Below are positions 10,354-50,395 of a stretch of 64,000 nucleotides of DNA, piece by piece. Within the stretch, counting starts at the first letter, position 1. The number at the start of each line of letters is the position of its first letter. This DNA is from Pseudomonadota bacterium (GTDB lineage: Bacteria > Pseudomonadota > Gammaproteobacteria > Burkholderiales > Burkholderiaceae): contig JAZKDF010000001.1 in assembly GCA_040387715.1 (NCBI GenBank), positions 326,420 through 390,419 on the forward strand, read 5' to 3'. The notes beneath the pieces are model-generated. The model did not search any database. It was not told the origin of the DNA and was given only the letters and a program-made list of their open reading frames with translations. Made by a program: the position numbers and the translations under genes.

Positions 10354-10398
10354 GGGTGGGTTGGATAAGATGCTAACTTGCGACCAACGCATTAAAAA
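10354..10398 (-). repeat. att-like copy 1 of the tRNA-Lys 3' half (most degenerate)
   Basis: 35/45 identity to 50320-50364. Adjacent hairpin at 10321-10345. Confidence 0.75.
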
Positions 10399-10402
10399 GT
10401 AA

Positions 10403-10801
10403 TTAATATTTTTCAATATCCCTGAGCTTTCCTAGTTTGTTAGTTCTCAAATCCACAGCAAGCTCATGAACCATTTGAGCAGCATTTGATGATTTCTTTG
10501 CTCCCTCAATTAATTCTAAATTATTGGTGAATATCGCGGACTGCTCTGTTAGCAGGGTGGCCTCTACTGCAAGTCTAGCGAAGTCTTCAACGCGTGATGC
10601 CTCCTCAATCAGCTCCTTCGAGTTTTCTATTGATAATGCGGTAAGCCTATTTAATCTTTCATTAGCAATAATGTATGCCTGCTGCAGATTGCCGATTTCT
10701 TTGCTCATTACGACAACTCTATCTAGTAGGCCTTGCGTATATGAATCTAATCTTTCCCCAGTCATAAGATCCCTTACATATCGTTTTTTAGCGCTTTCCA
10801 A
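10403..10801 (-). CDS. Hypothetical, probably helical/coiled-coil protein
   Basis: 132-aa ORF with no recognised motif. Confidence 0.5.
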   Translation of the reverse strand: MESAKKRYVRDLMTGERLDSYTQGLLDRVVVMSKEIGNLQQAYIIANERLNRLTALSIENSKELIEEASRVEDFARLAVEATLLTEQSAIFTNNLELIEGAKKSSNAAQMVHELAVDLRTNKLGKLRDIEKY

Positions 10802-10912
10802 ACTTAATGGATGGGGCTAATTTGCATTCAGCATCCTTAAATCGCTATAGCAGCCAAATTGCTGCGCTGCACTTACTTATAAATACTATATTCATAATTC
10901 CCATACTAATAT

Positions 10913-10953
10913 AAATTATAGAAAATATAAAATTATAGAAAATATAAAATTAT
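10913..10953. repeat. 17-bp tandem repeat (AAATTATAGAAAATATA x2.4) upstream of the GGDEF gene
   Basis: Read directly from the sequence. Confidence 0.7.
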
Positions 10954-10964
10954 TTATTGAGGCT

Positions 10965-12293
10965 TTGATGGCTATGAAAGTAGATGCTCAAAATTTAATG
11001 CAGTTATTTGAATGTGTTGAGATCCCTATTTTTTTCTGCGATTCAAAATTTAGATTAATTTCCGCGAATCGCGCCTATTGCAAAATGTTAGGGCTTACCC
11101 CTGAAGAAATATTGGGGAGAATTTATTGGGAAATATTTCCTCTTGGGGGTGTCTTTCTGGAAAAGAGCAATCCTCAAAGCGATCCTTCAAATATCTTTTC
11201 AAATAATGTTGAATTTAAGTTTCAAGGAAGAACTTTTCATTCCTATGAATATAAGATTTCGAGTCTTGATAGTAAATTGCAGATTTATTTTCATGCGCTT
11301 GCTGATATTACGGGTGCTGCGCTAGTCAAAAAATCACTTGAATATATTGCAATAAAAGATAGGCTACTTTTTGAGCGAAATCCCGATGCCGTTTTATTAG
11401 TTGAAGACTATTTCGTCATGGAAATGAACCAAGCTGTATTATTAATGTTTGGCTGCAATAGCCGTGATGAGATGCTTTATTACGACTTCACAAGCAAATT
11501 CTTGCCGCCATTCCAGCCCAGTGGTGAAAGCTCAAAGAATGTAATTAGTTTGAATATTGCCCGCGCAGTGGAACGGGGTAGTTGTAATTTTGAATGTACA
11601 TTCTGCAGGATGAATGACTCTAATTTTTTTGCTCAAGTTCAATTAATTGCATTTGAATTGGAAGGCAAAAACTATATACAGGCAGCAATTAAAGATGTTT
11701 CCAATCAAAAGGCATCTATATCCCATTTGGAGGAGATCGCCTTTAAAGATCCGCTAACTCAACTCTCCACTAGGCGCTTGCTTGATGACAGGTTGAATCA
11801 AGTCCTCTTAAAAAGTAAGAGGAGCAAGCAATACGCCGCACTATTTTTTATCGATTTAGATCAATTTAAGAGATTAAATGATGTTTTTGGTCATCATATT
11901 GGAGATTTAAGATTGCAAGATGTTGCTAAGCGTATTGCTTCTTGTTTAAGGATTGGGGATACGGTTGCAAGGATAGGGGGTGATGAGTTTGTAGTCCTTA
12001 TCAATGAGTTTAAAAATGAACTTAGTGTTGTTAAGCCTCAAGTATTAGAAATTGCTGAAAAATTAGTGAAAGCACTTTCAGCCAAGGCTTGTTACGAGGG
12101 GGTAGATCGAAAGCCATGTCGGTTGGCAGATGTTGCCCAATGCGCATGCTCTGCAAGCATTGGTGTGGTGATATTTTCTGGGGACGGCCAAAGTGGCGAG
12201 CAATTACTTGAACTTGCGGACGCAGCCATGTACACGGCCAAAAGAGCAGGTGGCAATCAATATTGGCTTTATGACGCCCAAAAGGGTGATTGA
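10965..12293 (+). CDS. PAS-PAS-GGDEF diguanylate cyclase
   Basis: Two PAS-like segments, DPLTQL..RR, FIDLDQFKRLND, and RIGD (I-site) preceding RIGGDEF. Confidence 0.9.
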   Translation: MMAMKVDAQNLMQLFECVEIPIFFCDSKFRLISANRAYCKMLGLTPEEILGRIYWEIFPLGGVFLEKSNPQSDPSNIFSNNVEFKFQGRTFHSYEYKISSLDSKLQIYFHALADITGAALVKKSLEYIAIKDRLLFERNPDAVLLVEDYFVMEMNQAVLLMFGCNSRDEMLYYDFTSKFLPPFQPSGESSKNVISLNIARAVERGSCNFECTFCRMNDSNFFAQVQLIAFELEGKNYIQAAIKDVSNQKASISHLEEIAFKDPLTQLSTRRLLDDRLNQVLLKSKRSKQYAALFFIDLDQFKRLNDVFGHHIGDLRLQDVAKRIASCLRIGDTVARIGGDEFVVLINEFKNELSVVKPQVLEIAEKLVKALSAKACYEGVDRKPCRLADVAQCACSASIGVVIFSGDGQSGEQLLELADAAMYTAKRAGGNQYWLYDAQKGD

Positions 12294-12323
12294 TGGATCT
12301 TGCAACTGTGAGTTGCAGTCAAG

Positions 12324-12632
12324 CTAATTCAACATTGCTTTCGCTAGATCGTTATAGCGCTGTAAGCCTGCCTCAGTCAGCTCTACATGTTTGATTCTGC
12401 TTTCGCTATTTTTTTTATGGGTGATTAATTCTTTTGCAGCCAACTTCTTTAGGGCTGCATGAATGGTGGCTGGTGAGGCAATCTCAGAAAGCAGGAGTAA
12501 TTCCCCAACGCTGCTGGCTCGTTTTTCTGACATGGCAAAAACTAAGGCGTTTAACACCTGAATTTGAGTGCTATCTAGGCTATATGACTCATTGATAGCC
12601 GTCTCTCGCTTTAGGTATTTTATATAAGCCAA
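12324..12632 (-). CDS. Small winged-helix (MarR-like) DNA-binding protein
   Basis: SPATIHAALKKL and RIKHVELTEAG wHTH pattern. Confidence 0.7.
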   Translation of the reverse strand: MAYIKYLKRETAINESYSLDSTQIQVLNALVFAMSEKRASSVGELLLLSEIASPATIHAALKKLAAKELITHKKNSESRIKHVELTEAGLQRYNDLAKAMLN

Positions 12633-12737
12633 AAGCCTCTTGTTTATATTAATTTCTGGTCTCCAACAACCTCTTTGGTTCTTGTAATATACTATTTTCT
12701 ATTTATAAAAATTATAATTTAAGCATTAGAAAAGTAA

Positions 12738-12956
12738 ATGACTGAAGAGCATGCTGAAAACGCGATTAGGCTATTAGATATAGTCTATGACCTCTATGGC
12801 GGGGGCAAGGGCTATCCCACCAAAGGACTTCCCTTTACAGTAAATCAAGCTGGTACTGTAGATCTTCACGAAGATTTAGTAAATGAGTTGCGAAAAGAAG
12901 GTAACGAGGACTTGTTAGGATGGGCGCAAGACAATATCCAGAGTCTTTTTGAATGA
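12738..12956 (+). CDS. Small acidic hypothetical protein
   Basis: 72-aa ORF with plausible composition and no recognised motif. Confidence 0.5.
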   Translation: MTEEHAENAIRLLDIVYDLYGGGKGYPTKGLPFTVNQAGTVDLHEDLVNELRKEGNEDLLGWAQDNIQSLFE

Positions 12957-13163
12957 GTGGTTTTTAGGTGGTATTGCCTCAAAAGCGTCAGTCATTTGTT
13001 CTGATCTTGAGCAATTTGGTTTGGAGTATGTGCTCATCGCCATCTCAAAAGGGATGTAGAGCATTCTTTGATATGGACTCAATAAAGCGTACATTAGCGA
13101 AGCGACTATTGCCATGACTGATATCAGCCGTGCGAATCTTGCCAGCCGAGGCGCAGATATCAT
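12915..13163 (-). CDS. Possible small membrane-anchored hypothetical protein
   Basis: 82-aa ORF with one hydrophobic segment. It overlaps its neighbour by 42 bp. Confidence 0.3.
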   Translation of the reverse strand: MISAPRLARFARLISVMAIVASLMYALLSPYQRMLYIPFEMAMSTYSKPNCSRSEQMTDAFEAIPPKNHSFKKTLDIVLRPS

Positions 13164-13282
13164 TAAAGAGTATTACGTGAATATCCCGGAATGGATTTGC
13201 TACTAATTTCTTAGGAAATTTTGCCCATCAATCTAGCCGTAAACCCATCGTATTTCAATGGGATACGGTCGTACTTGGCGGA

Positions 13283-13672
13283 TTATTCATGATATCGATA
13301 TTCCTGAGTCTTGCCACCATAGCCATAGCTAGTAGCCCTGACATCTTGAACATAGATATAGCTCTCTTCATGAAGATTGCCTAGGATTCGTTCAAATCCT
13401 AAAAATGCTTCCTTGATGTACTGAGCCTTCTCATCCTTGGTATTGGTCTCATCGGTAACCTTGATATCAAAGTAAAAGCTATTCTTCCCTTGCTCGCTTA
13501 ATAGCTTACCGGCTATAAGCCAGCAGTCCAGGTCTACATATTCAATAGCAATGGCAGTTACTTCTTTCTTCTTGCCTAGAATGCGATTGGTAAGATCTAG
13601 TAGTAATTCATTTATCGCTTTAGTAGTGGCGATATTCTTTTGTCCACTGACTTTCACGTTCAAGATTGGCAT
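13283..13672 (-). CDS. 4-oxalocrotonate tautomerase-family protein, copy A
   Basis: Catalytic Pro-1 (MPILNVKV), GKKKEVTAIAIEYV, and a double beta-alpha-beta unit. Confidence 0.88.
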   Translation of the reverse strand: MPILNVKVSGQKNIATTKAINELLLDLTNRILGKKKEVTAIAIEYVDLDCWLIAGKLLSEQGKNSFYFDIKVTDETNTKDEKAQYIKEAFLGFERILGNLHEESYIYVQDVRATSYGYGGKTQEYRYHE

Positions 13673-13704
13673 GTAATTCTCCTTTAGTAATTGATTTCAA
13701 TAAG

Positions 13705-13720
13705 TTAGCTATGCAACTAT
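13705..13720. promoter_or_regulatory. Putative MarR operator TTAGCTATGCAACTAT
   Basis: The identical imperfect palindrome occurs at 13705, 14183, 33464 and 33942, each upstream of a marR or tautomerase gene. Confidence 0.75.
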
Positions 13721-13739
13721 TAGGTAAATAAAAAAGTCA

Positions 13740-14159
13740 CTATCCCTTCAGAGCGGAGCTAATGCCCCGAACCCGTCCAACAACATCTTCAAAATGGTTT
13801 TCGCCTAATACTTTCTTTAGACGCCTTGTAACATCTCCACTGGCAGCATTAATGGCATTCTTCATATCTATAGCCTTCTTGGTCGGATGAATTTCTTGTT
13901 CTCGACCATCCTTCATGGAGGCAAGTCGCTTAATTAAGCCCAATCTCTCAAGACCATCTAAACCTCTGGTGGCAGTAGGGCGGCTGATATTCATCTCTAA
14001 AGCCAGCTCACTTTGCAATAACGCGGCTTTATCCAAAACCACCCTGAGCATGAAGGCTTGTGAGGGGGTAAGCCCAAAAGGCTTAAATGCCTTGGTCCAT
14101 TCCCGCTCTAGCTGGCGAGCTAGGCTAGTGGTATTGAAATAGAGGCATTGTTCAAACAT
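13740..14159 (-). CDS. MarR-family regulator, copy A
   Basis: FGLTPSQAFML, ISRPTATRGLDGL and DGR motifs. Start chosen by homology with copy B. Confidence 0.9.
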   Translation of the reverse strand: MFEQCLYFNTTSLARQLEREWTKAFKPFGLTPSQAFMLRVVLDKAALLQSELALEMNISRPTATRGLDGLERLGLIKRLASMKDGREQEIHPTKKAIDMKNAINAASGDVTRRLKKVLGENHFEDVVGRVRGISSALKG

Positions 14160-14182
14160 AGTGGCAGTGTAGTGCATATTAA

Positions 14183-14198
14183 TTAGCTATGCAACTAT
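14183..14198. promoter_or_regulatory. Putative MarR operator (autoregulatory)
   Basis: TTAGCTATGCAACTAT upstream of marR copy A. Confidence 0.75.
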
Positions 14199-14238
14199 AT
14201 AGTTGAAAAAGCCCCACAGAAGCGAGGCCTAGTGATGT

Positions 14239-14291
14239 TGGTGGGTTGGGTGAGAGTTGAACTCGCGACCAACAGATTAAAAGTCCACTGC
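14239..14291 (-). repeat. att-like copy 2 of the tRNA-Lys 3' half, extending through the anticodon arm
   Basis: 40/45 identity plus 7/8 further matches (TCCACTGC vs TCCGCTGC). Confidence 0.85.
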
Positions 14292-14613
14292 AAAAACTCT
14301 TTAACCTACTGATTTAAATGAATAAAATATATAAGCGATGGATATCTGTGCCCATCACCGCCTAGCAATATCAAGGTATTAGCGCGATCAGATTTGCGTT
14401 TATTCACTATCAATTTTGGGTAAATGCATTGCGTAAAGGGTTGTTGTGGAGTCAGTTGCAGTTACTCAAGGTGGCATATTTTCAGGTGCTGGAAGGCCTC
14501 AATTCAGCCATTAGGCAGAGTTGCACTTCCCAGGAGGGGTAAGGGGGGCGTAATGAGCTATCCTCTTGGCTATTAGCCCTAGAGCTAGCTCCTCAACATC
14601 TTTTTTGGTTCTT

Positions 14614-16506
14614 ATGAAATCCAAGCGCCCCATTCTGAATAATCGAATAATTCTTTTTGCATTCATAGCTGCACTGGTTTCGAGCGGTCAAGTGATGGCG
14701 GCCGCTTGTTCTTCTTCGGTTTCGCCTTATGCGGTTGATTGTGATGCCTCGGGTATTAATTGGACCTCTGGAAGCTTAAGTGTAAACAGCGGAGTGACAT
14801 TGCTAGATAGTGCGAGTTTTAGCTTTAGAACGCCTGGTGGCAGCTTTACTAACAATGGCTCTATTACGAATACAAGAGCGGGTGATATCGCATTAGTCGT
14901 TGGTGATGGCGGGGCGCCAATAAATATATCAAATATTACTAATAATGGCTCTATGACTGGCGGTCAAAGTGCGATACAAACTTTTAACAGTGTGACCATA
15001 AATACACTATCAAATAGTGGGGCTCTCAATGCGCAATATGGCCTCTATTTTCAGTCCAGCAATGTAATTGGGGATTTAATTAATACGGGCACAATTACAG
15101 GCACTGTAAGTGGCATCAAATTTACAGGTGGTACTGTCACTACGATTACCAACACTGGGACTATTAGCGGTGGAATTTATAACTACGATCCATTTCCATT
15201 TGGCATCCCACGCGTTAGCACAATTGGAACTCTCATCAATTCCCAGGGCATGGGAAATGCTGCAGGGGCCTTAACTTATTCAGGTAAGCTCCCAAGCAAC
15301 TACAGCATCATCATCAACAGCCCTACTAGTTTTGGAAAGCTAGCGGTAACTAGTGCATCAGGATCTACTACATTTGGTATCTATGCTGGATCCACGGTTG
15401 CTAACGGAACTTATGCTGCTGTTATATCGGGCCTGTCGGCTGGCAACTTCACCGCAACAGCTGGTACTTTAGGCGCGGGAACTTGGACCTTAAGCAATAG
15501 CTCTGGGAGTATTTGGGATTTAATAATTTCCGGATATGTTGTTATGCCAGTAGGCCCTTCGACCGCCAATACCCAGCAATCTTTAGTCAACACATCTCAA
15601 GTCTTACAAGGCTCCTACACCTTACAAAATTCAGTCTTGGCCAACAGCTTTACTTATGACTGTGCTTTATTTGATAAGAACAATGTTTGTATTTCTGCTG
15701 GTGGTCGTAACACTGCTGTGTCAGCTGCAAATGGCTTAAACAATACGAGTGGTTTATTGATTGCTGCATACCGTCCACACATGAATTATCGTGTGGGGGC
15801 ATACGTTGATCAGAACCTCTCAGTAAATAATGCTGGCTCTACTGTGAACTTAGGCAATAACACTCCACTCATTGGCTTGTTTGGTGCATGGAATGGGCGT
15901 CTTGATGGCACTGGTGCGGAGGTGAAAGTATCAGCTGCTTATGGCCAAAAGAACGCTACTGTTACTCGTGGCGTAGTTGGTGCAGGATCTACGGCATCCG
16001 AAGCAGGCACGGGCGGGTCACAGCTTAATAGTCGGGGCGCACAAGTGGTTGCCAAATATGGCTTCGGCGTTGCAGAGAGCGCGATTGTTTCTCCGTACGC
16101 TGGTATTCGCTATACCCAGAATAATATGGGTGGCTATACAGAAAGTAATTCAAGTGCGGTAACGGCGCCACTGACATACTCAGCACTCAATACCAACGCA
16201 ACAACGGCATTAGCTGGTGTGGGGGCTTCCTATCGTTTTATTCCACAAGCAACAGCGTTTGCTAGCGCTGGCGTGGAGACCGATACGAATACCGCTAACG
16301 GCTCTTATTCTGCAACTGGAGTAACTGGTTTAACCCCAGTCAATTTCAATGCCAATCCTGTGAAGACCCGTCCAACGGCAATGGTGGGTGCCACCTATGA
16401 TGTGGAAAAGAATCAGCGTATTGGTGTAACAGGCATTTATCGCCAAGAGCCATATCAGGCAGTTTCTACAACTACTGTGATGGCGACTTATACGGTTGGT
16501 TTGTAA
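14614..16506 (+). CDS. Autotransporter (type Va) with a Gly/Thr/Asn/Ser-rich beta-helical passenger
   Basis: Signal peptide, repeated TITNTGTI-like units, and a C-terminal amphipathic beta-barrel ending YTVGL. Confidence 0.8.
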   Translation: MKSKRPILNNRIILFAFIAALVSSGQVMAAACSSSVSPYAVDCDASGINWTSGSLSVNSGVTLLDSASFSFRTPGGSFTNNGSITNTRAGDIALVVGDGGAPINISNITNNGSMTGGQSAIQTFNSVTINTLSNSGALNAQYGLYFQSSNVIGDLINTGTITGTVSGIKFTGGTVTTITNTGTISGGIYNYDPFPFGIPRVSTIGTLINSQGMGNAAGALTYSGKLPSNYSIIINSPTSFGKLAVTSASGSTTFGIYAGSTVANGTYAAVISGLSAGNFTATAGTLGAGTWTLSNSSGSIWDLIISGYVVMPVGPSTANTQQSLVNTSQVLQGSYTLQNSVLANSFTYDCALFDKNNVCISAGGRNTAVSAANGLNNTSGLLIAAYRPHMNYRVGAYVDQNLSVNNAGSTVNLGNNTPLIGLFGAWNGRLDGTGAEVKVSAAYGQKNATVTRGVVGAGSTASEAGTGGSQLNSRGAQVVAKYGFGVAESAIVSPYAGIRYTQNNMGGYTESNSSAVTAPLTYSALNTNATTALAGVGASYRFIPQATAFASAGVETDTNTANGSYSATGVTGLTPVNFNANPVKTRPTAMVGATYDVEKNQRIGVTGIYRQEPYQAVSTTTVMATYTVGL

Positions 16507-16759
16507 CAGTTCGAATTAGTTAGAAATAACGAAAATAAGAGACCTGCTGCGACTGTCCACTTAATGACGAATAGCTACCTTATTGGATTTCTTGTATGTG
16601 CGCCTAGTTCATTCCGGAATTCAATCCGTTGGCCTCATATAAGGCTCTCAAGCGTAAACCCCAGAGCCTTATAGATATTGGTAGGACGGATGCAAAAAAT
16701 TCTGAACGCTACTCTAAGTAGAGCTTGCGGGGATGTTTTCGGTCAACAGCATTCATTAG

Positions 16760-19243
16760 CTATTGAATCCATTTTCTTCTGTAACCTAACTTAACCAATT
16801 CGTACCACGTGAGTCCGATTAACCCAGAGGCAAGAATCGTTAATGCACCTTCAAGCGTAGGCACAGTGAATTGAAACCGATCGCGGAAAAAAGGAATCGT
16901 AACTAAAAATCCAAACGATATTACTCCAATGCCGAGAATCCATTTCTGCGATGGATTGTTTTTTTGTAGGATTTTAAAAAGGTGATCCTTTTTCGATCTG
17001 CTCACAACAATTAATGAGATGTTGCCAATCACTAAACTACCAAATGATAGGGTTGTAGCCATGGCATGGGAATAATTCATATTTAGGAGCCAGAAATAAA
17101 GCCCAACAACAATAGCGGTCAATCCCGCTCCTTGTAGAAAGGCCATGGAGATATTTTGTAGGCTAAAGAGTTTTTGATTAATATTTCTAGGGGCTCTTAA
17201 CATGACATCACTTTCAGATGCCTCCATCTCAAAAATAATTGCGCAGGCGGGATCAATAATCATTTGCAGAAAGACAATATGAATTGGGTCTAGGATCGGC
17301 TGTATTCCAAAAAGGATAGGAATAAACACGGCTCCAGCCATTGGGATGTGGATAGCAACGACATAAATTATCGCTTTATGTAAGTTGTCATATATTTGTC
17401 TACCTTGCTGGATAGTTTGGGCAATGGATGAAAAATCATCATTTAGCAGCACTAAGGATGCGGCCTCTCTAGCGACATCTGTGCCTCGTTGCCCCATTGC
17501 AATTCCTACATGTGCGGCTTTTAGGGCGGGCGCATCGTTGACCCCGTCACCTGTCATAGCTACTACTTCATTGTTAGCTTGCAAAGCTTTTACGAGTCTT
17601 AGCTTATCGGCAGGCTTAATGCGAACATATACAGATGTTTTCTTGACCGCTTGACGAAGTTCAAGATCATTTAATACATTGATGTCTTTGCCAGATAGGA
17701 TGCTAATACTATCTATACCTACTTGCTTTGCAATTGCTTGCGCTGTAATGGCATGATCTCCAGTAATCATGATGACGCGAATGCCAGCCCTCTGACATTT
17801 CTGAATGGATGCAGGCACTTCTTGTCGAATGGGGTCTTGGAGCCCCGCAAGACCGAGCCAAGTAAACTCAAAAGAATTCAAGGTGGCTGGCCAGTCAGGG
17901 CCTTGCTTTGTATATTGGGATTTTGCAACGCCCAGCAAGCGCAATCCTTGTGATGCAAGGTCTTTAATTTGTTTTTCAATTGCTGCTATCTGTGTTTGCG
18001 ACAAATTACAGCATTTAAGAACTGCCTCTGGCGCCCCTTTGATAGCTACAAGGCACTGATTTGATCCAGGGTCTTGCCAAATGTGTGTCATGGCAGGGAG
18101 CTCATGACTCAGGCCATACTCGTGTACTAATTTAAATTCAGAAGTTTGATTAATATACTCGAGGGCGAGATGGCGCTTTTCATGAAAAGCTTGTTCCATC
18201 GGATCAAAGGGTTTTACTTCACTTGCAAGGATGCAATAACTTAGAAGCTCTTTCTGCGGTGAATTAAGTTCATCATCTTTTGAGCTAAGCATCAAGATAT
18301 TCTGGGGGATTGCAAGAACCTCTAGAGACATCTTATTAAGGGTGAGGGTGCCTGTCTTATCAACACATAATGCTGTGATGCTGCCGAGTGTTTCAATAAC
18401 GGGCGCATACCTGGTAAGTACTTTTTGGCGAGCTATTCTCCAAACGCCAAGCGCCATAAATACTGTCAAAATAACTGTGAATTCTTCAGGCAATAGGGCC
18501 ATAGTTAAGCTAATGGCAGTAAGTGCGCCTTGAAGCCAGTTATCGTGCATCAATCCATAGATTACTAAAACAAGAATAGAGAGTGATACTCCAAAGATCG
18601 TAAATCTTTTAATTAATACCTCAATGTCTTCCTGAAGGGGGCTATTAAGAACAATAATTTGTTTTAGGCTACTTCCGATTTTGCCTAACTCAGTTTGCAT
18701 ACCAATAGCGGTAACCTTGGCTACGCCGCTACCCCGGATTACCATGCAACCCGAATGAACTTGATTGGCGCCATCCTTTTTAGCAGGCTCAGATTCGCCG
18801 GTGAGCAATGATTCGTCAACAAGCAGGTTGTGAGCTTCAAGCAATAGCGCATCTGCGGGAATTCTGTCGCCTTCCTCGAGAATGAGAATGTCACCAACGA
18901 CAATTTCTTTGCCTGCTATTCTTTGGGTAACCCCATCTCTGATGACAATTGCCCTAGGGCTTGATAGCTCCTTGAGTGCATCAATTGCTTTTTCACTTTT
19001 TCGTTCCTGAAATAGGGTAATCCCAACCGAAATAAAAATGAATCCAATCAATATCAACGCGTCATCAATTTTTCCGATTACTAGGTAAATCAAACCAGCC
19101 AGCAAGAGAAGGGCAAAAGTAGGCTCAGCTAGTATTCGCAGAAGCAGTTTAAGAACAGTTTTTCTATCTGCAACTGAAATCTCGTTTAATCCATACTCTG
19201 CTTGAAGCTGGATTACTTGCGATTTGGTAAGCCCTTGCATCAA
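16760..19243 (-). CDS. Cation-transporting P-type ATPase (type II-like)
   Basis: TGES, PEEF, DKTGT, TGD and GDGVND motifs. Confidence 0.93.
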   Translation of the reverse strand: MMQGLTKSQVIQLQAEYGLNEISVADRKTVLKLLLRILAEPTFALLLLAGLIYLVIGKIDDALILIGFIFISVGITLFQERKSEKAIDALKELSSPRAIVIRDGVTQRIAGKEIVVGDILILEEGDRIPADALLLEAHNLLVDESLLTGESEPAKKDGANQVHSGCMVIRGSGVAKVTAIGMQTELGKIGSSLKQIIVLNSPLQEDIEVLIKRFTIFGVSLSILVLVIYGLMHDNWLQGALTAISLTMALLPEEFTVILTVFMALGVWRIARQKVLTRYAPVIETLGSITALCVDKTGTLTLNKMSLEVLAIPQNILMLSSKDDELNSPQKELLSYCILASEVKPFDPMEQAFHEKRHLALEYINQTSEFKLVHEYGLSHELPAMTHIWQDPGSNQCLVAIKGAPEAVLKCCNLSQTQIAAIEKQIKDLASQGLRLLGVAKSQYTKQGPDWPATLNSFEFTWLGLAGLQDPIRQEVPASIQKCQRAGIRVIMITGDHAITAQAIAKQVGIDSISILSGKDINVLNDLELRQAVKKTSVYVRIKPADKLRLVKALQANNEVVAMTGDGVNDAPALKAAHVGIAMGQRGTDVAREAASLVLLNDDFSSIAQTIQQGRQIYDNLHKAIIYVVAIHIPMAGAVFIPILFGIQPILDPIHIVFLQMIIDPACAIIFEMEASESDVMLRAPRNINQKLFSLQNISMAFLQGAGLTAIVVGLYFWLLNMNYSHAMATTLSFGSLVIGNISLIVVSRSKKDHLFKILQKNNPSQKWILGIGVISFGFLVTIPFFRDRFQFTVPTLEGALTILASGLIGLTWYELVKLGYRRKWIQ

Positions 19244-20089: not shown

Positions 20090-20128
20090 ATCAGCAGCAA
20101 ATGCCAGGCGGAAATTATTTGCCTGGTC

Positions 20129-40582: not shown

Positions 40583-40593
40583 TTAAAGGCGCT

Positions 40594-43458: not shown

Positions 43459-43650
43459 CTTAATCCATTTAATAACAGCCGCCGATGACTATCTTTGAGT
43501 AGATGTGATGGGGTTTGGATTGTTGCTTAACAGGGCCTCGAGATAGAAATTATTAGATTAGAAGTATTAATATCAAAACATAGTCATTTTCCCCGATTAA
43601 ATTATTGGCTTTAAAAGGCTGTCAGTGTGCCTAATGATTATTTTCAGGGA

Positions 43651-44397
43651 TTAATCCGTTTTTCTGGCGCCTTTTTTCTTTATGGTGTTCATTTGAAGAT
43701 TTCTCCATTCCTCATCTAGAGAAATTTTATCCATAATTTGTTTTGAATAATTGTGGTCCATTATGAAATCAATAAATTCCCTATAGTCAGTTGATTTAGC
43801 TATTTCCCTATAAGGTTCAATTTTTTCCTCAAGAATACTCAGCGCCAATTCAGTCAATTTTTTACCAAGTAATAGGTTTAGCTTGTTACTTAGGGACCTC
43901 ATTTTGAGTTCATATAGATTGGTTTCTGAATATGCAGCATATGTATTGTTTGGAATTGTTCCCTCAATGGCCGCTAATCTAAATCGAGCAATTTCTTTAT
44001 CTATCCCTGCGCCACAGGTTTTGATCAATTTTAAAGCGCTAGTGGCATCAATTGACAAGGCTGGCCACAACTTTAATCCTTCTGGCCCTGATAAATAAAT
44101 ATCCTTCGAGCCGGGTATTAAGTTATTTATCTTATCGAGGAAAACCTCATTCGGTTGACTCCCATCTGAGTAGTTTAGCCATCTAGATTGGCGTCCACCA
44201 AATCTCTTTTCTAGCTGATAGTTTGAGGTGCACCCAGATTCCCTAATTACGAACTCATACCAAGCAATCGCCCTCAGCGAATCAATCGGCCAAATATATC
44301 TTTTGTCGGTTGAATTTGTCGGAAGTTTTTTTGTGGTTTTGATGGTGCCACCTATCTTTAAGTAGGTTGTATTAAAAAAAAGTTTATTTCCAAATAT
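43651..44397 (-). CDS. Probable HTH-type regulator; the frame extends well beyond the TTG at 44070, with a likely ATA start
   Basis: The frame is open to 44436. The upstream translation ..DSLRAIAWYEFVIRESG..YQLEKRF..RWLNYSDG.QP..VFLDKIN..IPGS looks HTH-like. GGAGG lies 7 nt before ATA at 44397. Confidence 0.55.
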   Translation of the reverse strand: MFGNKLFFNTTYLKIGGTIKTTKKLPTNSTDKRYIWPIDSLRAIAWYEFVIRESGCTSNYQLEKRFGGRQSRWLNYSDGSQPNEVFLDKINNLIPGSKDIYLSGPEGLKLWPALSIDATSALKLIKTCGAGIDKEIARFRLAAIEGTIPNNTYAAYSETNLYELKMRSLSNKLNLLLGKKLTELALSILEEKIEPYREIAKSTDYREFIDFIMDHNYSKQIMDKISLDEEWRNLQMNTIKKKGARKTD

Positions 44398-44444
44398 TGT
44401 TAAACCTCCAAAAGAAAAGAGGGTTTCAAATGAATATTAAAACT

Positions 44445-44557
44445 TTAATAAGATACACACCAGTGCAATCTCCGAATTGCGGCGTACCAATGCTTGGATC
44501 TACAAATACGCCCCAGCACAAAATCAATAGAAGTGGCAAAAATTCGGAGGTGCAAAA
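44445..44557. promoter_or_regulatory. Candidate oriT / divergent promoter region
   Basis: Directly upstream of the trwA-trwB-trwC-like genes, with nested inverted repeats (CTCCGAATT/AATTCGGAG, GGCGTA/TACGCC, CCAA/TTGG). Confidence 0.45.
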
Positions 44558-44899
44558 GTGAAAACAAAGCATCTACGAGCCAGGCTACCCGATTCAGAGT
44601 ATGAGTTGGTCAAGGTCGCCGCAGATAAATTGGGCTTAACTATTAGTGAGCATGTTCGCTCTGTTTTAGCCTCTGGCAGGCTAGCAATTGCTCAGGAAGC
44701 TCTATTAGACAGGATTGACTCGCACCTATTGCACCTTCCAGCTGCGGTTAACTCGACCCAAGAAGTCCAGGAGCTTGAGCCATTTGTTGTCGAAATTCTA
44801 CTTTTGGTGCGAGAGCTCGTGTCTGAGCGAAATGCGCAAATTCTCTCTCGAGTTTCAACTCAACTAAATAACTACTATCCAGCAAGGAAAAGACTATGA
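44558..44899 (+). CDS. Ribbon-helix-helix relaxosome accessory protein (TrwA/MobC-like)
   Basis: LRARLPDSEYELVK.AA..LGLTISEHVR RHH pattern. It is the first gene of the mob operon. Confidence 0.7.
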   Translation: MKTKHLRARLPDSEYELVKVAADKLGLTISEHVRSVLASGRLAIAQEALLDRIDSHLLHLPAAVNSTQEVQELEPFVVEILLLVRELVSERNAQILSRVSTQLNNYYPARKRL

Positions 44900-45222
44900 G
44901 CAAGCATGATCCAATTTTCATCACCTTCAAGATCTATTTTTTCAGAATTATCTGGTTTTTTGGTATATCTGCGCTCCTAGCATTTTCCGTTTGGAGTTGG
45001 GCGTTAATCCATCTCTTTGGGATTGCATTCTGGGATTTATTCGGTCATCTGACTTGGGAATTTTTACCGCATATAAAAATTATCGAGCCATTGCTTGTAT
45101 GGTGTTCAATGGTTATTGGGGTGTTGGCAACAAGCTTGATTTTTTCCTTGATTCATATTTGGTGGCACCAACGTGGTGATCAATATCGCCGCGGATCTAA
45201 CCTTGGCAATAAGGGGGCTTGA
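44896..45222 (+). CDS. Two-TM membrane protein, probably the detached N-terminal anchor of the coupling protein
   Basis: Two hydrophobic segments ending in WHQRGDQYRRGSNL, then a stop 1 nt before the T4CP ATG. Confidence 0.6.
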   Translation: MSKHDPIFITFKIYFFRIIWFFGISALLAFSVWSWALIHLFGIAFWDLFGHLTWEFLPHIKIIEPLLVWCSMVIGVLATSLIFSLIHIWWHQRGDQYRRGSNLGNKGA

Positions 45223-45223
45223 T

Positions 45224-46450
45224 ATGGGGCTTATAAATAGTATTTTCGGCCCATCTTCTGCCAATCAAAAAATTGTCTTTGGCGGCATACCTCTTTCTCG
45301 AAAACTAGAGCCATTACATTTTTTATTGGTGGGCTCAACTGGTACTGGCAAAACAACGCTTGTGGATCAGATTCTGAACGCCGCCATTCCTCGAGGCGAT
45401 AGGGTGATCGTTTGCGATCCTGGTGGAAGGCACCTTAGTTTGTTTTCACGGGCAGGGGATTTGGTTCTTAATCCCTTTGACAAAAGGTCATCTGGCTGGT
45501 CAATATTTAATGAGATCCGAACGGATTTTGATTATGAGCGTCTTTCTGGATCAATTGTGCCGGAGGCGCAGGGGTCGGATATGCAGTGGCATCATTACGC
45601 GCGGGTGCTATGTGCAGAGACAATGCAGGCCCTAATGAAACGCGGAGAGGGCGCAACCGAAAGATTGATGTATTGGTTGACCATAGCCAAATCGGATGAG
45701 TTGGCTGCCTTGTTGGTCGGAACGCCGGCTCAGGGTTTATTTGATAAGGACGCCGCAAAAGCTTTGGCTTCAACACGTTTTATCCTCACGACACAACTTA
45801 ATCCCCATAAGTATATAAAGCCAGGTGATTTTAGTATTCGCGATTGGTTGATTTCAGGGTCGGGAAATTTATTCTTAACCTGGCGCGAAGACATGCAAAC
45901 AGCCTTAAAGCCATTAATTAGCACCTGGATTGATATTGCCTCTAATGCAGTTTTATCTCTTCCCGCAGATCAAGATCGGCGCATCTGGCTCATTTTGGAT
46001 GAATTGGGTGCTTTGGGGCGACTAAATTCGATTGAAAGTGCCCTAACAAGAGGGCGAAAGCATGGCTTATGTGTTGTAGCTTGCTTGCAAAGTACATCGC
46101 AGTTAGATCGTGTTTATGGGCATGACTCAGCCATCGTACTCCGTAGTTGTTTTAGAAATCTAGTCGTTTTGGCTGTCAGTAAAGCGGACCCGGAGACTGC
46201 TGAAACTCTGTCTAAAAGTTTGGGAGAGGCAGAGATTGACAGGCGGCAGCACTCAAGCTCAGATGGGCCAGGCGGAATCACCAAAAGTATTGCAACGCAG
46301 AGGGTTTCCGAGCGAATTGTGATTGCAAGTCAAATCACGGGACTTCCAAACTTGACTGGATATCTGGCTCTGGCTGAAAGTGCGGATACGACCCGCATTC
46401 AAATTACCCCAGTCAATTTTCCTATTGTCGCCCCTGCCATATTGGAGTAA
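45224..46450 (+). CDS. Type IV coupling protein, TrwB/TraD family, nucleotide-binding part
   Basis: Walker A GSTGTGKT, NPFDKRS, Walker B LDELGAL, and GRKHG. No N-terminal TM. Confidence 0.9.
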   Translation: MGLINSIFGPSSANQKIVFGGIPLSRKLEPLHFLLVGSTGTGKTTLVDQILNAAIPRGDRVIVCDPGGRHLSLFSRAGDLVLNPFDKRSSGWSIFNEIRTDFDYERLSGSIVPEAQGSDMQWHHYARVLCAETMQALMKRGEGATERLMYWLTIAKSDELAALLVGTPAQGLFDKDAAKALASTRFILTTQLNPHKYIKPGDFSIRDWLISGSGNLFLTWREDMQTALKPLISTWIDIASNAVLSLPADQDRRIWLILDELGALGRLNSIESALTRGRKHGLCVVACLQSTSQLDRVYGHDSAIVLRSCFRNLVVLAVSKADPETAETLSKSLGEAEIDRRQHSSSDGPGGITKSIATQRVSERIVIASQITGLPNLTGYLALAESADTTRIQITPVNFPIVAPAILE

Positions 46451-46453
46451 TGC

Positions 46454-49036
46454 ATGCTAACTATTTCAAAAGTGTCAAGCGGGGCAGCGGCAGCAAATTA
46501 CTACGAAGATTCTAGTGACTACTATCTCCGAGATGATCCATCTAGTTGGCAGGGAAAAGGGGCAGGAGCGCTTGGATTGAGTGGGCAGGTGGATTTTGAG
46601 ATATTTAGAAATCTCATTAACGGAAATCTACCCAATGGAGCCGAGATTCATAATGTTGGGAAATCTAGATGTGGTGCGCTAGATTTCACGTTCTCAGCAC
46701 CCAAGAGTATTTCGATGCAGTCCTTAGTTGGGGGTGATAAGCGCCTTATTGCCGCCCATGAATTAGCAGCCTCTAGAGCTTTAGATTATGCCCAAACTCT
46801 AGCTGCATATCGGATAACCAGTGATGGAGTTACCGTCAAAGAGCAGAGTGCAAATTTAACGGTTGCCACTTTTTTGCATGATTTGAGCCGCGCCAACGAT
46901 CCTAATTTACATACTCATGCGGTGATTTTAAATATTACCCAAAGACCAGATGGGGGATGGAGATCTCTGGAGCAAACAGATTTATATCGCCAAAAAATGC
47001 TGATGGGCGCTCTATATCGCTCTGAATTGGCGCAAGAAGTCAAAAAAATGGGTTATGAAGTTCGTGTGACTCACGTTGATGGGCGTTTTGAATTGGCTCA
47101 TATTAGCGAGGCACAAGTCAAGGCATTTAGCACTCGCAGTCAGCAAATAGAGGCAATGCTGTCAGACCGCGGTTTGACAAGAGAAACCGCCAGCTCGAAA
47201 GAGAGGGAGGTGGCGAATCTTGCGACACGTGACAAAAAAGGCGTCGTTGACCGCGAGGCGCTCATGAATGATTGGATCCAGAAAAGCCAAGAATTTGGAG
47301 TTGACTATAGCCCTTCGATCTCCGCGCAGATGAGTTGTAAGGCGGACTCATTTGGGGTTAAGGATGTTATTGACTTTGCAATTGAGCATACGACCGAGAG
47401 GCAGTCTATTGTTGAAAAGTCAGCACTAATGAGGGCTGCATTAGAGCGCGGTATAGGCGTTACTAATTTAACCTCAATTCAGAAGGAGATTGAGAGGAGG
47501 GTTGAAGTTGGTGAATTAATTGCCTCTGGGAGTCGCTATACAACTGAAGCTGCACTCAAGCGGGAGCTCGATATTATTTCCATTGCTCAAAGAGGTTCTA
47601 ACAGACTTACTCCAGTTGCACCTAATGAGGTCACCTCAAAATGTTTGTCAAATACATCATTGAACTTAGGCCAATCGGCTGCTGTGCGGCTAATTTTAAA
47701 TACCGAAGATAGGGTGGTTGCCATACAAGGCTCAGCGGGTACGGGTAAAACTTTCATGTTGGAGGTCGCAAAGAATTTGGCGGAGGCGGAGGGTTACGAA
47801 GTTCGTGGATTAGCTCCATCAGCTGCGGCCGCTAAGGAGCTGGAGAAAGTTGGCATTGACTCACAAACGATTGCATCGTTTGGGGCGTCCAAGAGCTCGA
47901 ATTTAAATGAAAAAACTATTTTGCTGGTTGATGAGGCGGGAATGGTATCAGCCAAGGATATGCAGTTTATTTTTCGGGCGGCCGAGTTAAGTAATTCAAG
48001 AGTGGTCTTGATTGGCGATACCCAGCAATTACAAGCGGTTGAAGCTGGCAAGCCTTTTGCGCAATTACAAGAATCTGGAATCTCAAGGGTGGAGGTGGGG
48101 GAAATTATTAGGCAAAGCGATCAATCTTTGCGTCTTGCAGTTGAGATGGCCTCGCAAGGGGAAATTGGTAGCGCCATTAGAATTTTAGAAAAGCATATTC
48201 ATGAGATAACTGATGATCGAAGTCGATATGAGCAAATTGCAAAAGATTATGCCGCTCTAGCTGAGAGTGAACGGTCTCAAACCTTAGTGGTTGCAGGTAC
48301 CAAATATGCTTGCACATCAATTAATCAAAACATTCGCTCAGAATTAGATTTGGCAGGCAATGGCATTCAGGTTGCCACATTAGAGCGCAAGGATTTAACG
48401 CAAGCCCAAGCCAAAATGAGCACTTCTTATCAGCCCGGAGATGTGATCGAGGCGAAAAAAGACTTTTCATCCCTTGGGTTGAGTCGGGGGGATTTGGCAG
48501 TTGTAGTGCATGGGGATGCTGGTCTTGTCCAATTGGAGCGATCAGACGGGGTGCAAGTTGATTGGCGGCCTGCTGTACAAACTAACATGATTGCTTACAA
48601 GGCAATAGATCGAGAATTTTCCTCTGGAGATGTGGTTCGATTTACTGGCAATGACTATGCGATGGGCGTTACCAACGGAGATCGTGCATTAGTGGCAAGT
48701 ATTGACCAAGAAAAGCAGTTAATGACGATGCAAAAGATGGATGGAGATGTCATTGCACTGGATCTTAGCCAACCTCAAAAGATTGACTATGCCTATTGCA
48801 CCACGATTCATTCGGCTCAGGGCCAGAGTTCAGAAAGAGTGTTGATAGAGGCTGATACGGCTAGTGCCACATCTAATGAAAATGCATTCTATGTAGCCAT
48901 TAGTAGGGCTAGGTCTGAGGTGGAGATTTATACGGACGACAAATACCAACTTCCAGAGTCCATGGGTCGCGAAAATGTAAAAGAATCGGCTCTTGAGCTA
49001 GTGCAAGAGAGCCGCTCGCATTCCTTCGATCTTTAA
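46454..49036 (+). CDS. MOB_F relaxase-helicase (TrwC/TraI family)
   Basis: N-terminal YY..DYY, DFTFSAPKS, HDLSR..DPNLHTH, and helicase motifs GSAGTGKT, DEAGM, GDTQQL and YVAISRAR. Confidence 0.95.
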   Translation: MLTISKVSSGAAAANYYEDSSDYYLRDDPSSWQGKGAGALGLSGQVDFEIFRNLINGNLPNGAEIHNVGKSRCGALDFTFSAPKSISMQSLVGGDKRLIAAHELAASRALDYAQTLAAYRITSDGVTVKEQSANLTVATFLHDLSRANDPNLHTHAVILNITQRPDGGWRSLEQTDLYRQKMLMGALYRSELAQEVKKMGYEVRVTHVDGRFELAHISEAQVKAFSTRSQQIEAMLSDRGLTRETASSKEREVANLATRDKKGVVDREALMNDWIQKSQEFGVDYSPSISAQMSCKADSFGVKDVIDFAIEHTTERQSIVEKSALMRAALERGIGVTNLTSIQKEIERRVEVGELIASGSRYTTEAALKRELDIISIAQRGSNRLTPVAPNEVTSKCLSNTSLNLGQSAAVRLILNTEDRVVAIQGSAGTGKTFMLEVAKNLAEAEGYEVRGLAPSAAAAKELEKVGIDSQTIASFGASKSSNLNEKTILLVDEAGMVSAKDMQFIFRAAELSNSRVVLIGDTQQLQAVEAGKPFAQLQESGISRVEVGEIIRQSDQSLRLAVEMASQGEIGSAIRILEKHIHEITDDRSRYEQIAKDYAALAESERSQTLVVAGTKYACTSINQNIRSELDLAGNGIQVATLERKDLTQAQAKMSTSYQPGDVIEAKKDFSSLGLSRGDLAVVVHGDAGLVQLERSDGVQVDWRPAVQTNMIAYKAIDREFSSGDVVRFTGNDYAMGVTNGDRALVASIDQEKQLMTMQKMDGDVIALDLSQPQKIDYAYCTTIHSAQGQSSERVLIEADTASATSNENAFYVAISRARSEVEIYTDDKYQLPESMGRENVKESALELVQESRSHSFDL

Positions 49037-49060
49037 AGAAGAATTCATTTCATTTTTAGC

Positions 49061-49390
49061 ATGCGCACATTAGACCTTCAGGAGGCCGCTATTTTTCTCA
49101 AGATGCACAAGGAAGAAGTGCGCCGTAGAGCTAAGCTGGGGATTCTTCCGGGGGCAAAAATTGGCAAATGCTGGGTATTTATTGATGATGATCTTGCATT
49201 GCACATTCGTTCGCTGTACGCTATCCGAGAGCAAGCGTTACAGGTGACAACAAGAAAGGAAAGTATATGTCACTCATTAAACGCAGTAGTACGTGGTGGG
49301 TCAGTTTTACCACCCCACGGGGAGAGCGAATTAGACGCTCTGCTCAAACAGAAAATAAGTCTCAAGCGCAAGAATTCCATGACAAATTAA
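49061..49390 (+). CDS. Excisionase-like HTH protein overlapping the integrase start
   Basis: LDLQEAAIFLKMHKEEVRRRAK.G.LPGAKIGKCWVF (MerR-like HTH of the Xis type). Confidence 0.8.
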   Translation: MRTLDLQEAAIFLKMHKEEVRRRAKLGILPGAKIGKCWVFIDDDLALHIRSLYAIREQALQVTTRKESICHSLNAVVRGGSVLPPHGESELDALLKQKISLKRKNSMTN

Positions 49391-50280
49391 AGGCCGAATA
49401 CTGGAGTGTTCAGGTGGTTGGTAATAAACCGAAATACACTTGGGATGAAGCTGGCGTGAAGTGGTTATCTGAAATGAGTCACAAGAAAACTCATCTTGAG
49501 GATGTGAGAAAGTTGGCTTGGCTTCAGCAGTATTTGCGGGGAAGGGTTTTGTCAGAAATTTCACGTGATGACATATCGGCTATCGGTGAAGTAAAGAGAG
49601 ATGAGTCCAGTGGTTCCACTGCAAATCGGTATCTTGCGTTGATTCGTGCAATTTTGAGGCGGGCTTGTTTTGAGTGGGAGTGGATTATTCGGACCCCCAA
49701 GGTGAGAATGTATCAAGAGGCAAAACGTAGGGTGCGTTGGATAACTCCTGAGCAGGCAAAGGTTTTGTTAGGGGAATTACCTTTGCACCAAAAGGAAATA
49801 ACCCTTTTTGCATTATCAACGGGTTTAAGGCAGGCCAATGTAGTGCAGTTAACCTGGCCGCAAGTAGATTTGGTGCGAGGTACTGTTTGGATTCCAAGCG
49901 ATAAGGCAAAAGCCGGAGAGGATATTCATGTTTCGCTTAGTGAATTTTCTACTCAAGTCTTGCATCGTCAATTGGGAAAACATAAAGATCGAGTATTTAC
50001 TTATGCTGGAAAGCCGGTTCAGCAGGCAAATACAAAATCTTGGCGTAATGCTTTAAAGAGGGCTGGAATCGAGAATTTCAGATGGCATGACTTGAGGCAC
50101 ACGTGGGCAAGCTGGTTGGTGCAAAACGGCACTCCTTTATATGTTCTGCAAGAAATGGGCGGATGGAAGTCTTCTGAGATGGTTCGGCGGTATGCGCACC
50201 TAGCACCTGCGCAGTTGGCGCAACATGCTGCTGTAGTTGGAAATCTGCTTTGTGACACAAACTTGGCACAAAGCCTGTAA
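49267..50280 (+). CDS. Phage-type tyrosine integrase
   Basis: GLRQAN (R), KAG (K), HDLRHTWAS (HxxR) and GGW..EMVRRYAH (W, Y). It ends next to the tRNA. Confidence 0.95.
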   Translation: MSLIKRSSTWWVSFTTPRGERIRRSAQTENKSQAQEFHDKLKAEYWSVQVVGNKPKYTWDEAGVKWLSEMSHKKTHLEDVRKLAWLQQYLRGRVLSEISRDDISAIGEVKRDESSGSTANRYLALIRAILRRACFEWEWIIRTPKVRMYQEAKRRVRWITPEQAKVLLGELPLHQKEITLFALSTGLRQANVVQLTWPQVDLVRGTVWIPSDKAKAGEDIHVSLSEFSTQVLHRQLGKHKDRVFTYAGKPVQQANTKSWRNALKRAGIENFRWHDLRHTWASWLVQNGTPLYVLQEMGGWKSSEMVRRYAHLAPAQLAQHAAVVGNLLCDTNLAQSL

Positions 50281-50319
50281 AAGAAAAGGGACCACATTTC
50301 TGTGATCCCTTTGTATTAC

Positions 50320-50395
50320 TGGTGGGTCGGGCGAGATTCGAACTCGCGACCAACGGATTAAAAGTCCGCTGCTCTACCGACTGAGCTACCGACCC
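50320..50395 (-). tRNA. tRNA-Lys (anticodon UUU), with encoded CCA
   Basis: GGGTCGGTAGCTCAGTCGGTAGAGCAGCGGACTTTTAATCCGTTGGTCGCGAGTTCGAATCTCGCCCGACCCACCA, a 76-nt cloverleaf. Confidence 0.98.

Follow-up and report, generated by a model that had tools for sequence, protein, structure and literature searches.

The island described here is of a kind that already has a name, the additive flexible genomic island (PMC4898812). In the additive islands of Alteromonas (PMC4898812, PMC3698932) and in the flexible genomic island fGI-2 of 'Ca. Methylopumilus' (PMC10872708), as at the present locus, a fixed tRNA hotspot holds variable cassettes between direct repeats of part of the tRNA, near-identical cassettes occur in different species, and the cargo consists of transporters, regulators, metabolic genes and toxin-antitoxin or defence genes. 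In fGI-2, which measures 0.3-42 kb, it is the final 20 nt of tRNA-Lys(ctt) that are repeated (PMC10872708). Additive islands with cassettes have also been mentioned for Polynucleobacter asymbioticus (bioRxiv 10.1101/2022.03.25.485477). We analysed a stretch of 64,000 nt (the window: contig JAZKDF010000001.1 of assembly GCA_040387715.1, positions 326,420 to 390,419, forward strand; coordinates below are those of the window) from a bacterium that, judged by sequence, is a Polynucleobacter. The window contains an island of ~40 kb in which seven units, M1 to M7, lie head to tail between a core glutathione S-transferase (GST) gene and the tRNA-Lys/amidase pair. All four features of additive islands are present: the same position next to a tRNA in different species, cassette variation, tRNA repeats, and cassette identity above that of the core. 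We consider it highly probable that the region is an additive flexible genomic island, or integration hotspot, at the Polynucleobacter tRNA-Lys(UUU), built by tyrosine-integrase recombination at the anticodon loop; that the locus is a clean, genus-wide case of the already known island kind is well supported.

Parts of this architecture recur in other systems. ICESt1 and the cis-mobilizable elements (CIMEs) of Streptococcus thermophilus and the IME_Sag2603_tRNAlys composite (PMC5704250) likewise arise by tandem accretion at one 3'-end attachment (att) site, with an integrase-bearing mobilizable element beside units that have att sites and no integration or transfer genes; excision of the composite is possible in principle, there as here. 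The tycheposon islands of Prochlorococcus (bioRxiv 10.1101/2020.12.28.424599) share a streamlined planktonic host, tRNA islands studded with partial tRNAs, newcomers that push older elements inward, and plug-in cargo modules. Chromosomal integrons have in common with the present array its one-sided growth at a fixed site, small cassettes, many of them toxin-antitoxin, and a recombinase outside the cassette. The ssrA islands of Dehalococcoides (PMC3146451) are described as tandem islands at a single-copy small-RNA gene with 3'-end direct repeats between them; there the target is tmRNA and the phylum is a different one.

ARAGORN finds one tRNA gene in the window (n=1), the intact tRNA-Lys(UUU) at 50320-50395 on the minus strand. 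An ungapped scan with the 45-nt 3' half of this tRNA, from the anticodon loop to CCA (50320-50364 on the plus strand), recovered seven copies, all co-oriented (7/7): fragment 1 at 10354-10398 (35/45 identical), fragment 2 at 14239-14283 (40/45), fragment 3 at 19608-19652 (37/45), fragment 4 at 20764-20808 (45/45), fragment 5 at 22204-22248 (39/45), fragment 6 at 29083-29127 (43/45) and fragment 7 at 34842-34886 (45/45). The same scan of the window gave no copy on the opposite strand. At three mismatches or fewer there are 4 matches, against 0.00 expected from 100 shuffles. Searching with nhmmer and a profile of 36 distinct fragment sequences returned exactly the seven copies and the tRNA, with no weaker copy. 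Hence M7 holds no hidden internal copy, and the possibility that M7 is a composite with degenerate internal fragments was rejected. In five of the seven copies the identity breaks at the 5' edge of the anticodon loop (...GGATTAAAAG|); in fragment 2 it extends 8 nt past that edge (7/8), to 14291, and fragment 3 has lost the anticodon loop.

Read in the tRNA sense, a stem-loop and a U run come after each copy and after the tRNA itself (folding energies from -10.4 to -25.8 kcal/mol, z from -2.3 to -6.9), and a terminator scan separately picks up two of these hairpins. The hairpins fall into types. Type A is common to fragment 3, where it is degenerate, fragment 4 (20729-20756) and the tRNA (50285-50312); type B to fragments 5 (22167-22196) and 7 (34805-34834); and type C to fragments 1 (10324-10345) and 2 (14209-14230), while the hairpin beside fragment 6 lies at 29045-29082. 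Hairpin A and the 45-nt half together form a perfect repeat, 20723-20808 being identical to 50279-50364 at 86 of 86 positions. These findings bear out what a first-pass annotation had read from the letters of the window, namely seven co-oriented tRNA halves, nearly all breaking at the anticodon loop and each with a hairpin beside it. Its count of 35/40 for the copy at 19608 is compatible with ours, and the unit sizes that it gave are correct.

Every unit thus has its own terminator hairpin and 45-nt tRNA half at its tRNA-proximal end. Drawn from this anatomy, each unit would begin at the first nucleotide past one fragment and close with the following fragment on the tRNA side, which gives M1 at 10399-14283 (3.9 kb), M2 at 14284-19652 (5.4 kb), M3 at 19653-20808 (1.2 kb), M4 at 20809-22248 (1.4 kb), M5 at 22249-29127 (6.9 kb), M6 at 29128-34886 (5.8 kb) and M7 at 34887-50364 (15.5 kb). 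The G+C fraction of the island, 0.36-0.45, is lower than that of the flanks, 0.47-0.50. Fragment 1 and its hairpin (10324-10398, minus strand) adjoin the core GST gene, which ends at 10289, with 64 nt between GST and fragment, and would represent the 3' half and terminator of the original chromosomal tRNA-Lys.

M7 is the only unit with an integrase and a relaxase. That no other unit has an integrase had been noted in the first-pass annotation, and Pfam, tblastn and jackhmmer agree that M7 alone has a recombinase. It is bounded by 45/45 repeats at 34842 and 50320. Its tyrosine integrase (Int, 49267-50280; PF00589, 3.5e-33) has its stop codon 5 nt ahead of the type A hairpin, next to which lies the 3' half in current use by the tRNA (50320-50364). 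The same unit encodes a NikA-like protein (44558-44899), a TrwB-type T4 coupling protein (45173-46450; 5.3e-104), a TrwC relaxase-helicase of the MOBF class (46454-49036; 1.2e-76) and an open reading frame (ORF) at 49061-49390 with a helix-turn-helix (HTH) match only, which may possibly be an excisionase. Neither a VirB4-type protein nor any other type IV secretion family was found among the ORFs of the unit. M7 is therefore taken as an integrative mobilizable element (IME) and not as an integrative conjugative element, and by its predicted genes it is an intact one, with integrase, relaxase and coupling protein and no mating-pore genes. The integrase family is large, with 7076 relatives at E<1e-20 and 65-76% identity in other Burkholderiales. 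In all three relatives examined (L087, L090 and L092) the integrase gene is convergent with a tRNA-Lys (UUU or CUU) that lies 25-36 nt past the stop codon. The L087 element has a perfect 45-nt repeat at both ends, which stops at the same loop position and is again accompanied by hairpins.

By contrast, M1 to M6 have att sites at their ends and no integration or transfer genes, as CIMEs are described. Pfam found no recombinase gene in these six units, and tblastn with the integrase and the Xis-like ORF found no remnant of one. An iterated profile search (jackhmmer) of all stop-to-stop ORFs of M1 to M6 found no integrase pseudogenes, of which old clean deletions would leave none; on the two negative searches together, integrase pseudogenes were rejected as components of these units. 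Beyond M7, the window as a whole likewise holds no recombinase or remnant of one by these searches.

The amidase gene was used to search bacterial genomes, one per species, and gave 80 loci (L numbers), all of them in Polynucleobacter or in metagenome-assembled genomes (MAGs) of Burkholderiaceae, with 75-97% amino-acid identity. Wherever a locus extends far enough past the amidase, the tRNA-Lys comes next. In the 10 kb retrieved per locus, about 27 of the 80 loci carry between one and four additional co-oriented 3'-half fragments (at least 33/45 identity), none of them on the other strand; some 50 tRNA-half fragments were collected across the related loci. In the Polynucleobacter loci all fragments are followed by terminators, which belong to few shared families. 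A GST gene lies 1-10 kb from the same tRNA-Lys in seven loci: in L034 the distance is 1 kb, a near-empty site, and in the other six (L004, L009, L036, L022, L044, L070) it is 2-10 kb. Many MAG contigs of related species end at this tRNA, as expected for a variable, repeat-rich island. Seven layers at one tRNA had been called unusually deep in the first-pass annotation; this is not established, as other species have 3-4 fragments within the 10 kb covered per locus and islands of up to 42 kb have been published for another freshwater betaproteobacterium (PMC10872708).

When all loci were cut at the fragments and the pieces compared, the same cassettes were recovered from different species and at different places in the array. 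A cassette at rank 3 in L010 (L010_m3) matches one at rank 2 in L068 (L068_m2) from end to end, at 96% over 1406 nt; L010_m2 corresponds to L075_m1 (93%) and L066_m2 to L068_m1 (95%). A cassette of ~1030 nt is common to L009, L016, L028 and L047, and one of 580 nt to L027, L040, L061 and L063. The M3 unit of the window corresponds to L047_m2, both ends falling on fragments, and has further matches in L041 and L063; the LodAB block of M5 occurs also in L079. The cassettes are 88-97% identical, whereas the adjacent 2 kb of core are 69-80% identical in the same species pairs. Because units that lack an integrase recur across species with an unchanged pair of ends, at an identity above that of the core, the integrase-less form appears to be what spreads. 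Many of the small cassettes, 0.6-1.4 kb in length, are toxin-antitoxin pairs: HigBA, Gp49/HI1420, AbiEii with an HTH protein, zeta and Fic.

Metagenome contigs vary in the same way. A JGI contig is identical to the window up to 20808, the end of fragment 4, and then continues into a different module; an ENA k141 contig joins M3 straight to the intact tRNA. Near-identical copies of M3 have three different proximal neighbours. Run X3 contains M3 and M4 only, and in run X4 an M3-like sequence is present at 255-387x with its neighbours at no more than 6x. For a census of metagenome junctions we used hairpin A plus the start of the 45-mer as the key, which gave 34 loci. One cassette end, with an identical inner flank, is joined right after ...AAAAG to six different right-hand sequences or to the intact tRNA, and a second one to four different sequences or the tRNA. 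An integrase abuts hairpin A in only two of the census loci, M7 of the window and L098, whose integrases are 90% identical. Module presence and order therefore vary between samples and between species, and the breakpoints fall exactly at the fragments. None of the three findings named in the first-pass annotation as speaking against its proposal (fixed module order and content, boundaries off the fragments, misassembly) was made.

Two observations concern single related loci. In L028, neighbouring modules open with the same 430 nt (11510-11939 and 16696-17125, 99.3% identical), and their hairpin, fragment and arm junctions are identical, which suggests a recent duplication or a repeated insertion. 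In L078 (at 19926) and L079 (at 4621) the tRNA half is split, with ~50 nt inserted between its first 26 nt and last 19 nt.

The junctions themselves carry features of site-specific recombination. On the distal side of the units, in the P arms, 36 distinct sequences share the AAAAG junction at the same nucleotide of the anticodon loop. Among variant fragments of Polynucleobacter, the 8 nt next to the loop (CcTaaAca or CTTTaAgc, for example) always go with one P-arm family, and the rest of the fragment, 37 nt, runs on into hairpins of different families; the switch point does not move, as expected from a fixed crossover point. P-arm family 3 comprises the arm of M6 in the window (29128-29215, with tandem GTGCGATT at 29188 and 29200) and arms in L010 (three times), L012, L041, L068, L075, L096 and L107. 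Its 85 nt are conserved in otherwise unrelated cassettes and contain a TATAAATCAATGG motif and the tandem GTGCGATT repeats (also given as AATCGCAC). Family 4 includes the arm of M4 and family 6 that of M2, which is similar to the P arms of the L028 modules; family 5, to which an integrase-bearing unit (L022) belongs, is marked by tandem GTGTGTA repeats. One layout is common to arms of three families, an A/T-rich motif of the TATAAA type at about +25 and two direct GTGYGWT repeats at about +50-75. This layout is typical of integrase arm sites. Some of the integrase-less cassettes thus have conserved arms that are attP-like.

Hairpins A and B have, inward of them, a conserved non-coding element of ~140 nt, element X, which is present in at least 14 cassettes with unrelated cargo. 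The window has it in M3 (20589-20717), M4 (22074-22159) and M6 (34686-34797); elsewhere it stands just after the hairpin in L001, L007, L012 (twice), L013, L015, L027, L041, L055, L067 and L071. A relic of an integrase 3' end, suggested by a YAHL-like reading frame, was dismissed because an nhmmer profile of X matches no integrase gene, and so was a structured RNA, RNAalifold giving no consensus pairs on either strand and Rfam no match. Our guess is that element X may be the inner attP arm.

These features would fit the following mechanism. A tyrosine integrase would recombine a circular unit with the tRNA gene, with the crossover in or beside the anticodon loop. The attP of the circle would consist of the inner arm, the terminator, the 45-nt tRNA half and the P arm. 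On integration, the half brought by the unit would complete the tRNA, and the previous 3' half with its terminator would be displaced outwards as a scar. Given a crossover in the anticodon loop, the hairpin and tRNA half found proximally in a unit would belong to that unit. The working tRNA would accordingly be a chimera, its 5' part (50365-50395) chromosomal and its 3' 45 nt derived from M7. Repeated insertion, en-bloc moves of neighbours and loss of internal scars would produce the stack. The integrase-less cassettes would retain attP-like arms, rely on integrase supplied in trans by whichever element is present, and leave the cell with a mobilizable element such as M7, by accretion and cis-mobilization. 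Trans-mobilization of the outer cassettes by the integrase of M7 is plausible. Homologous recombination between the repeats probably adds to deletions and reordering.

Several results weigh against this account of the island, or limit it. From the outermost fragment inwards the mismatches number 10, 5, 8, 0, 6, 2 and 0, so that the decay is not monotonic. Since each displaced half must have been functional when it was displaced, this order implies that the array of this lineage did not grow by single insertions at the intact tRNA alone; gene conversion, insertion into internal scars or the arrival of neighbouring units already assembled into a block must have played a part as well. Two units, M1 and M6, have the look of fused cassettes. 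For M1 a fusion of two cassettes is probable, because its right 1.1 kb matches a cassette in L001, L013, L022 and L067, and such apparent fusions indicate that deletion does reshape the array. M7 has neither element X nor a family-3 P arm, and there is consequently no sequence argument for its integrase recognising the outer cassettes. No integrase was found within the fetched 10 kb in most of the arrays of other species. In runs X1 and X2 the depth is even and the array fixed. For none of the att pairs did we see an excision product, a circle or an empty site, nor was any step of integration or transfer seen, and contigs built at k=31 cannot resolve the 86-nt repeat; 'joints' at fragments in the k=31 Logan contigs are repeat-induced and were not used as evidence of excision. 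A scan of metagenomes for the P-arm junction of M7, either with other distal neighbours or in a circle, gave 0 matches.

Could the array be a product of assembly, with the repeated tRNA halves chaining unrelated metagenome contigs? The window does match metagenome contigs, and in related species this tRNA is where many MAG contigs stop. We regard such an artefact as extremely improbable. Contigs of an NCBI metagenome assembly and a Logan run reproduce 39267-51757 (also given as starting at 39450) and, with its four fragments, 16452-30428, at 99.9-100%. Fragments 3-6 are bridged at 99.9% by an independent contig of 23 kb, and the stretch from M7 to the core by one of 12 kb. Read depth is equal over all seven units (~100x in run X1 and ~5x in run X2), and the architecture is found again in isolate genomes of other species. 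A biological alternative is decay in place: the outer six units would once have been autonomous, integrase-bearing elements whose integrase and transfer genes were deleted where they stood, leaving dead scars. CIMEs are reportedly of such origin, a view said to go back to Pavlovic (2004) and Guedon (2017), and streamlined genomes delete quickly. Decay is the standard three-step model of the IME review (PMC5704250); it would also account for the apparent fusions M1 and M6 with their lost internal scars, and a truncated integrase does lie past the distal repeat of L087. Against it stand the absence of any integrase remnant from M1 to M6 by tblastn and iterated profile search, the presence of the same integrase-less units in several species at 88-96% identity with core at 69-80%, the many units that are toxin-antitoxin cassettes of 0.6-1.4 kb, the conserved arms on both sides of unrelated cassettes, and the cassette end that meets at least seven neighbours. 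Since the integrase-less form is shared between species with fixed ends, and its arms are conserved, mobilization in trans is favoured, and decay in place is unlikely.

A second biological route would dispense with integrase for most of the array. RecA-dependent exchange between the 45-86-nt repeats, after uptake of larger DNA fragments, could add, remove and reorder cassettes, with site-specific recombination confined to the integrase-bearing elements. The perfect 86-nt repeat and the hairpin families shared between cassettes would serve such exchange, the non-monotonic divergence of the fragments could reflect gene conversion, and P. asymbioticus has a recombination-to-mutation ratio (r/m) of 7.4, with recombination hotspots beside genomic islands (PMC5644125). 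Against this route, 36 distinct P-arm contexts meet the tRNA half at the same nucleotide of the anticodon loop, and the switch point stays constant among variant loops; nor does a RecA route need the shared P-arm layout, which is typical of integrase arm sites. We hold this route to be rather improbable as the main one. The earlier proposal that the repeats are att scars of site-specific accretion at one tRNA-Lys is supported. The accompanying idea that one integrase/relaxase element adds or excises the other six units is not supported: the P arm and inner end of M7 are unlike the conserved arms of the integrase-less cassettes, and at least three other integrase types occur at the site in other species, a 464-aa SAM-like recombinase (L022, L054), a P4-like integrase (L055) and another type (L002, L017, L062).

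The first-pass annotation had also called the stack integron-like. As a loose analogy the term is acceptable, but the M7 integrase is not an IntI (TIGR02249, 22.8 bits against a cut-off of 265), there is no attC, and the genes of the island lie on both strands with their own regulators. A bolder reading, which we offer tentatively and think more doubtful than not, is of a genus-wide tRNA-Lys cassette system, an integron analogue based on lambda-type recombination, whose cassettes would be moved in trans and exported by transient elements. A complete attP-like site would then comprise a P arm with tandem GTGYGWT, the 45-nt half, the terminator and element X, and many cassettes would be single toxin-antitoxin or small metabolic modules. 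In comparison with true integrons, the locus has neither attI nor attC and no common promoter; its sites are double-strand, attP-type sites with a tRNA half, and its boundaries are tRNA halves and terminators.

As an additive island, the locus differs from its relatives in further respects. The repeat covers 45 nt, from the anticodon loop to CCA, and not the last 20 nt as in Methylopumilus. Each repeat has its own terminator, and conserved attP-like arms can be defined in cassettes that lack an integrase. To our knowledge such arms on integrase-less cassettes are not described in the additive-island papers cited above, and they may be a new feature. Relative to ICESt1/CIME, there are six integrase-less units and not one or two, with no sign of an origin by decay; the host is Gram-negative, and transfer would depend on a MOBF (TrwC) relaxase and coupling protein. 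M7 also departs from tycheposons in that it has a relaxase, a T4 coupling protein and type I restriction-modification in place of their hallmark primase/helicase/polymerase replication module, no replication-module family being found among the family matches of its ORFs; fragmented integrases, a feature of tycheposon islands, were not seen here.

Polynucleobacter, a genus that can be cultured, ranks with the most abundant bacteria of fresh water; its genome is small and streamlined, and its exchange of flexible genes is only partly understood. The locus gives a sequence-defined picture of one route of that exchange, a hotspot through which species trade cold-shock, cyclic di-GMP signalling, metal transport, organic-acid catabolism, toxin-antitoxin and restriction-modification genes. 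The cassette ends (the 45-nt half, the terminator and the P-arm and X families) can be used as search keys with which to map mobile genes in metagenomes. Marine additive islands and tycheposon islands pose the same question of movement in trans for cassettes without an integrase.

The core genes on the left of the island are AhpF, AhpC, an Nramp transporter and GST, the last two at 8403-10289 on the plus strand; those on the right are an AmiC-like amidase (AMIN-amidase_3) and TsaE, at 50482-52352 on the minus strand, and QueG. The amidase-TsaE flank is conserved beside the tRNA-Lys in the 80 Polynucleobacter loci. M1 encodes a hypothetical protein, a PAS-GGDEF diguanylate cyclase, a winged-HTH protein and a tautomerase-like + MarR pair. 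M2 contains an autotransporter, a P-type cation ATPase and a small ORF. In M3, a cspA-like 5' leader precedes a cold-shock domain (CSD) gene (19886-20089), which is followed by a paralogue of initiation factor IF-1 (20175-20435). The leader and CSD start (19698-20156) resemble the cspA thermoregulator RF01766 at 43 bits, below the gathering score of 78. With an additional IF-1 gene behind the CSD gene, M3 has the appearance of a portable cold-shock cassette. M4 has two hypothetical genes with no family match. The cargo of M5 is a bestrophin-like protein, a lipoprotein, a protein with a twin-arginine (TAT) signal, a LodA-like oxidase with a LodB-like flavoprotein, and a phytochelatin-synthase-like protein, and that of M6 a GntR regulator, an enoyl-CoA hydratase, TctC, a CoA-transferase III, a second tautomerase-like + MarR pair and a DUF6864 protein. 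At its left end M7 has an NYN-domain protein, a BamE-like lipoprotein and an adhesin-E-like lipoprotein, followed by type I restriction-modification genes hsdM/S/R (37726-43458).

Some minor observations concern these genes and related loci. The MarR and tautomerase-like pairs of M1 (13290-14004) and M6 (33041-33763) are paralogues with 83-86% nucleotide identity, and the pair is found at the same locus also in L001, L013, L022 and L067. The longest ORFs of the divergent GntR (29285-30088, minus strand) and enoyl-CoA hydratase (29856-30767, plus strand) genes of M6 overlap by 230 nt, because the first start codon was taken; public gene calls (L083) start later. In hsdS of M7, a direct repeat of 51 nt (39848-39898 and 40463-40513, 75% identity) represents the duplicated conserved region that is usual between the two target-recognition domains. 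L087, another betaproteobacterial metagenome contig, has an integrase 74% identical to that of M7 and, just past the distal 45-nt repeat, a truncated integrase of 146 aa at 275-715; decay remnants are visible there, unlike in Polynucleobacter. In L024, L028 (from 19651), L032, L068 (from 13974) and L069, a palindromic element, GGTACGTACCGGACACATGCTTTACGTCCGGTACCGACCACATGG, takes the place of the usual terminator directly after the tRNA or a fragment, and may be a repeat of the repetitive extragenic palindrome (REP) or miniature inverted-repeat transposable element (MITE) kind.

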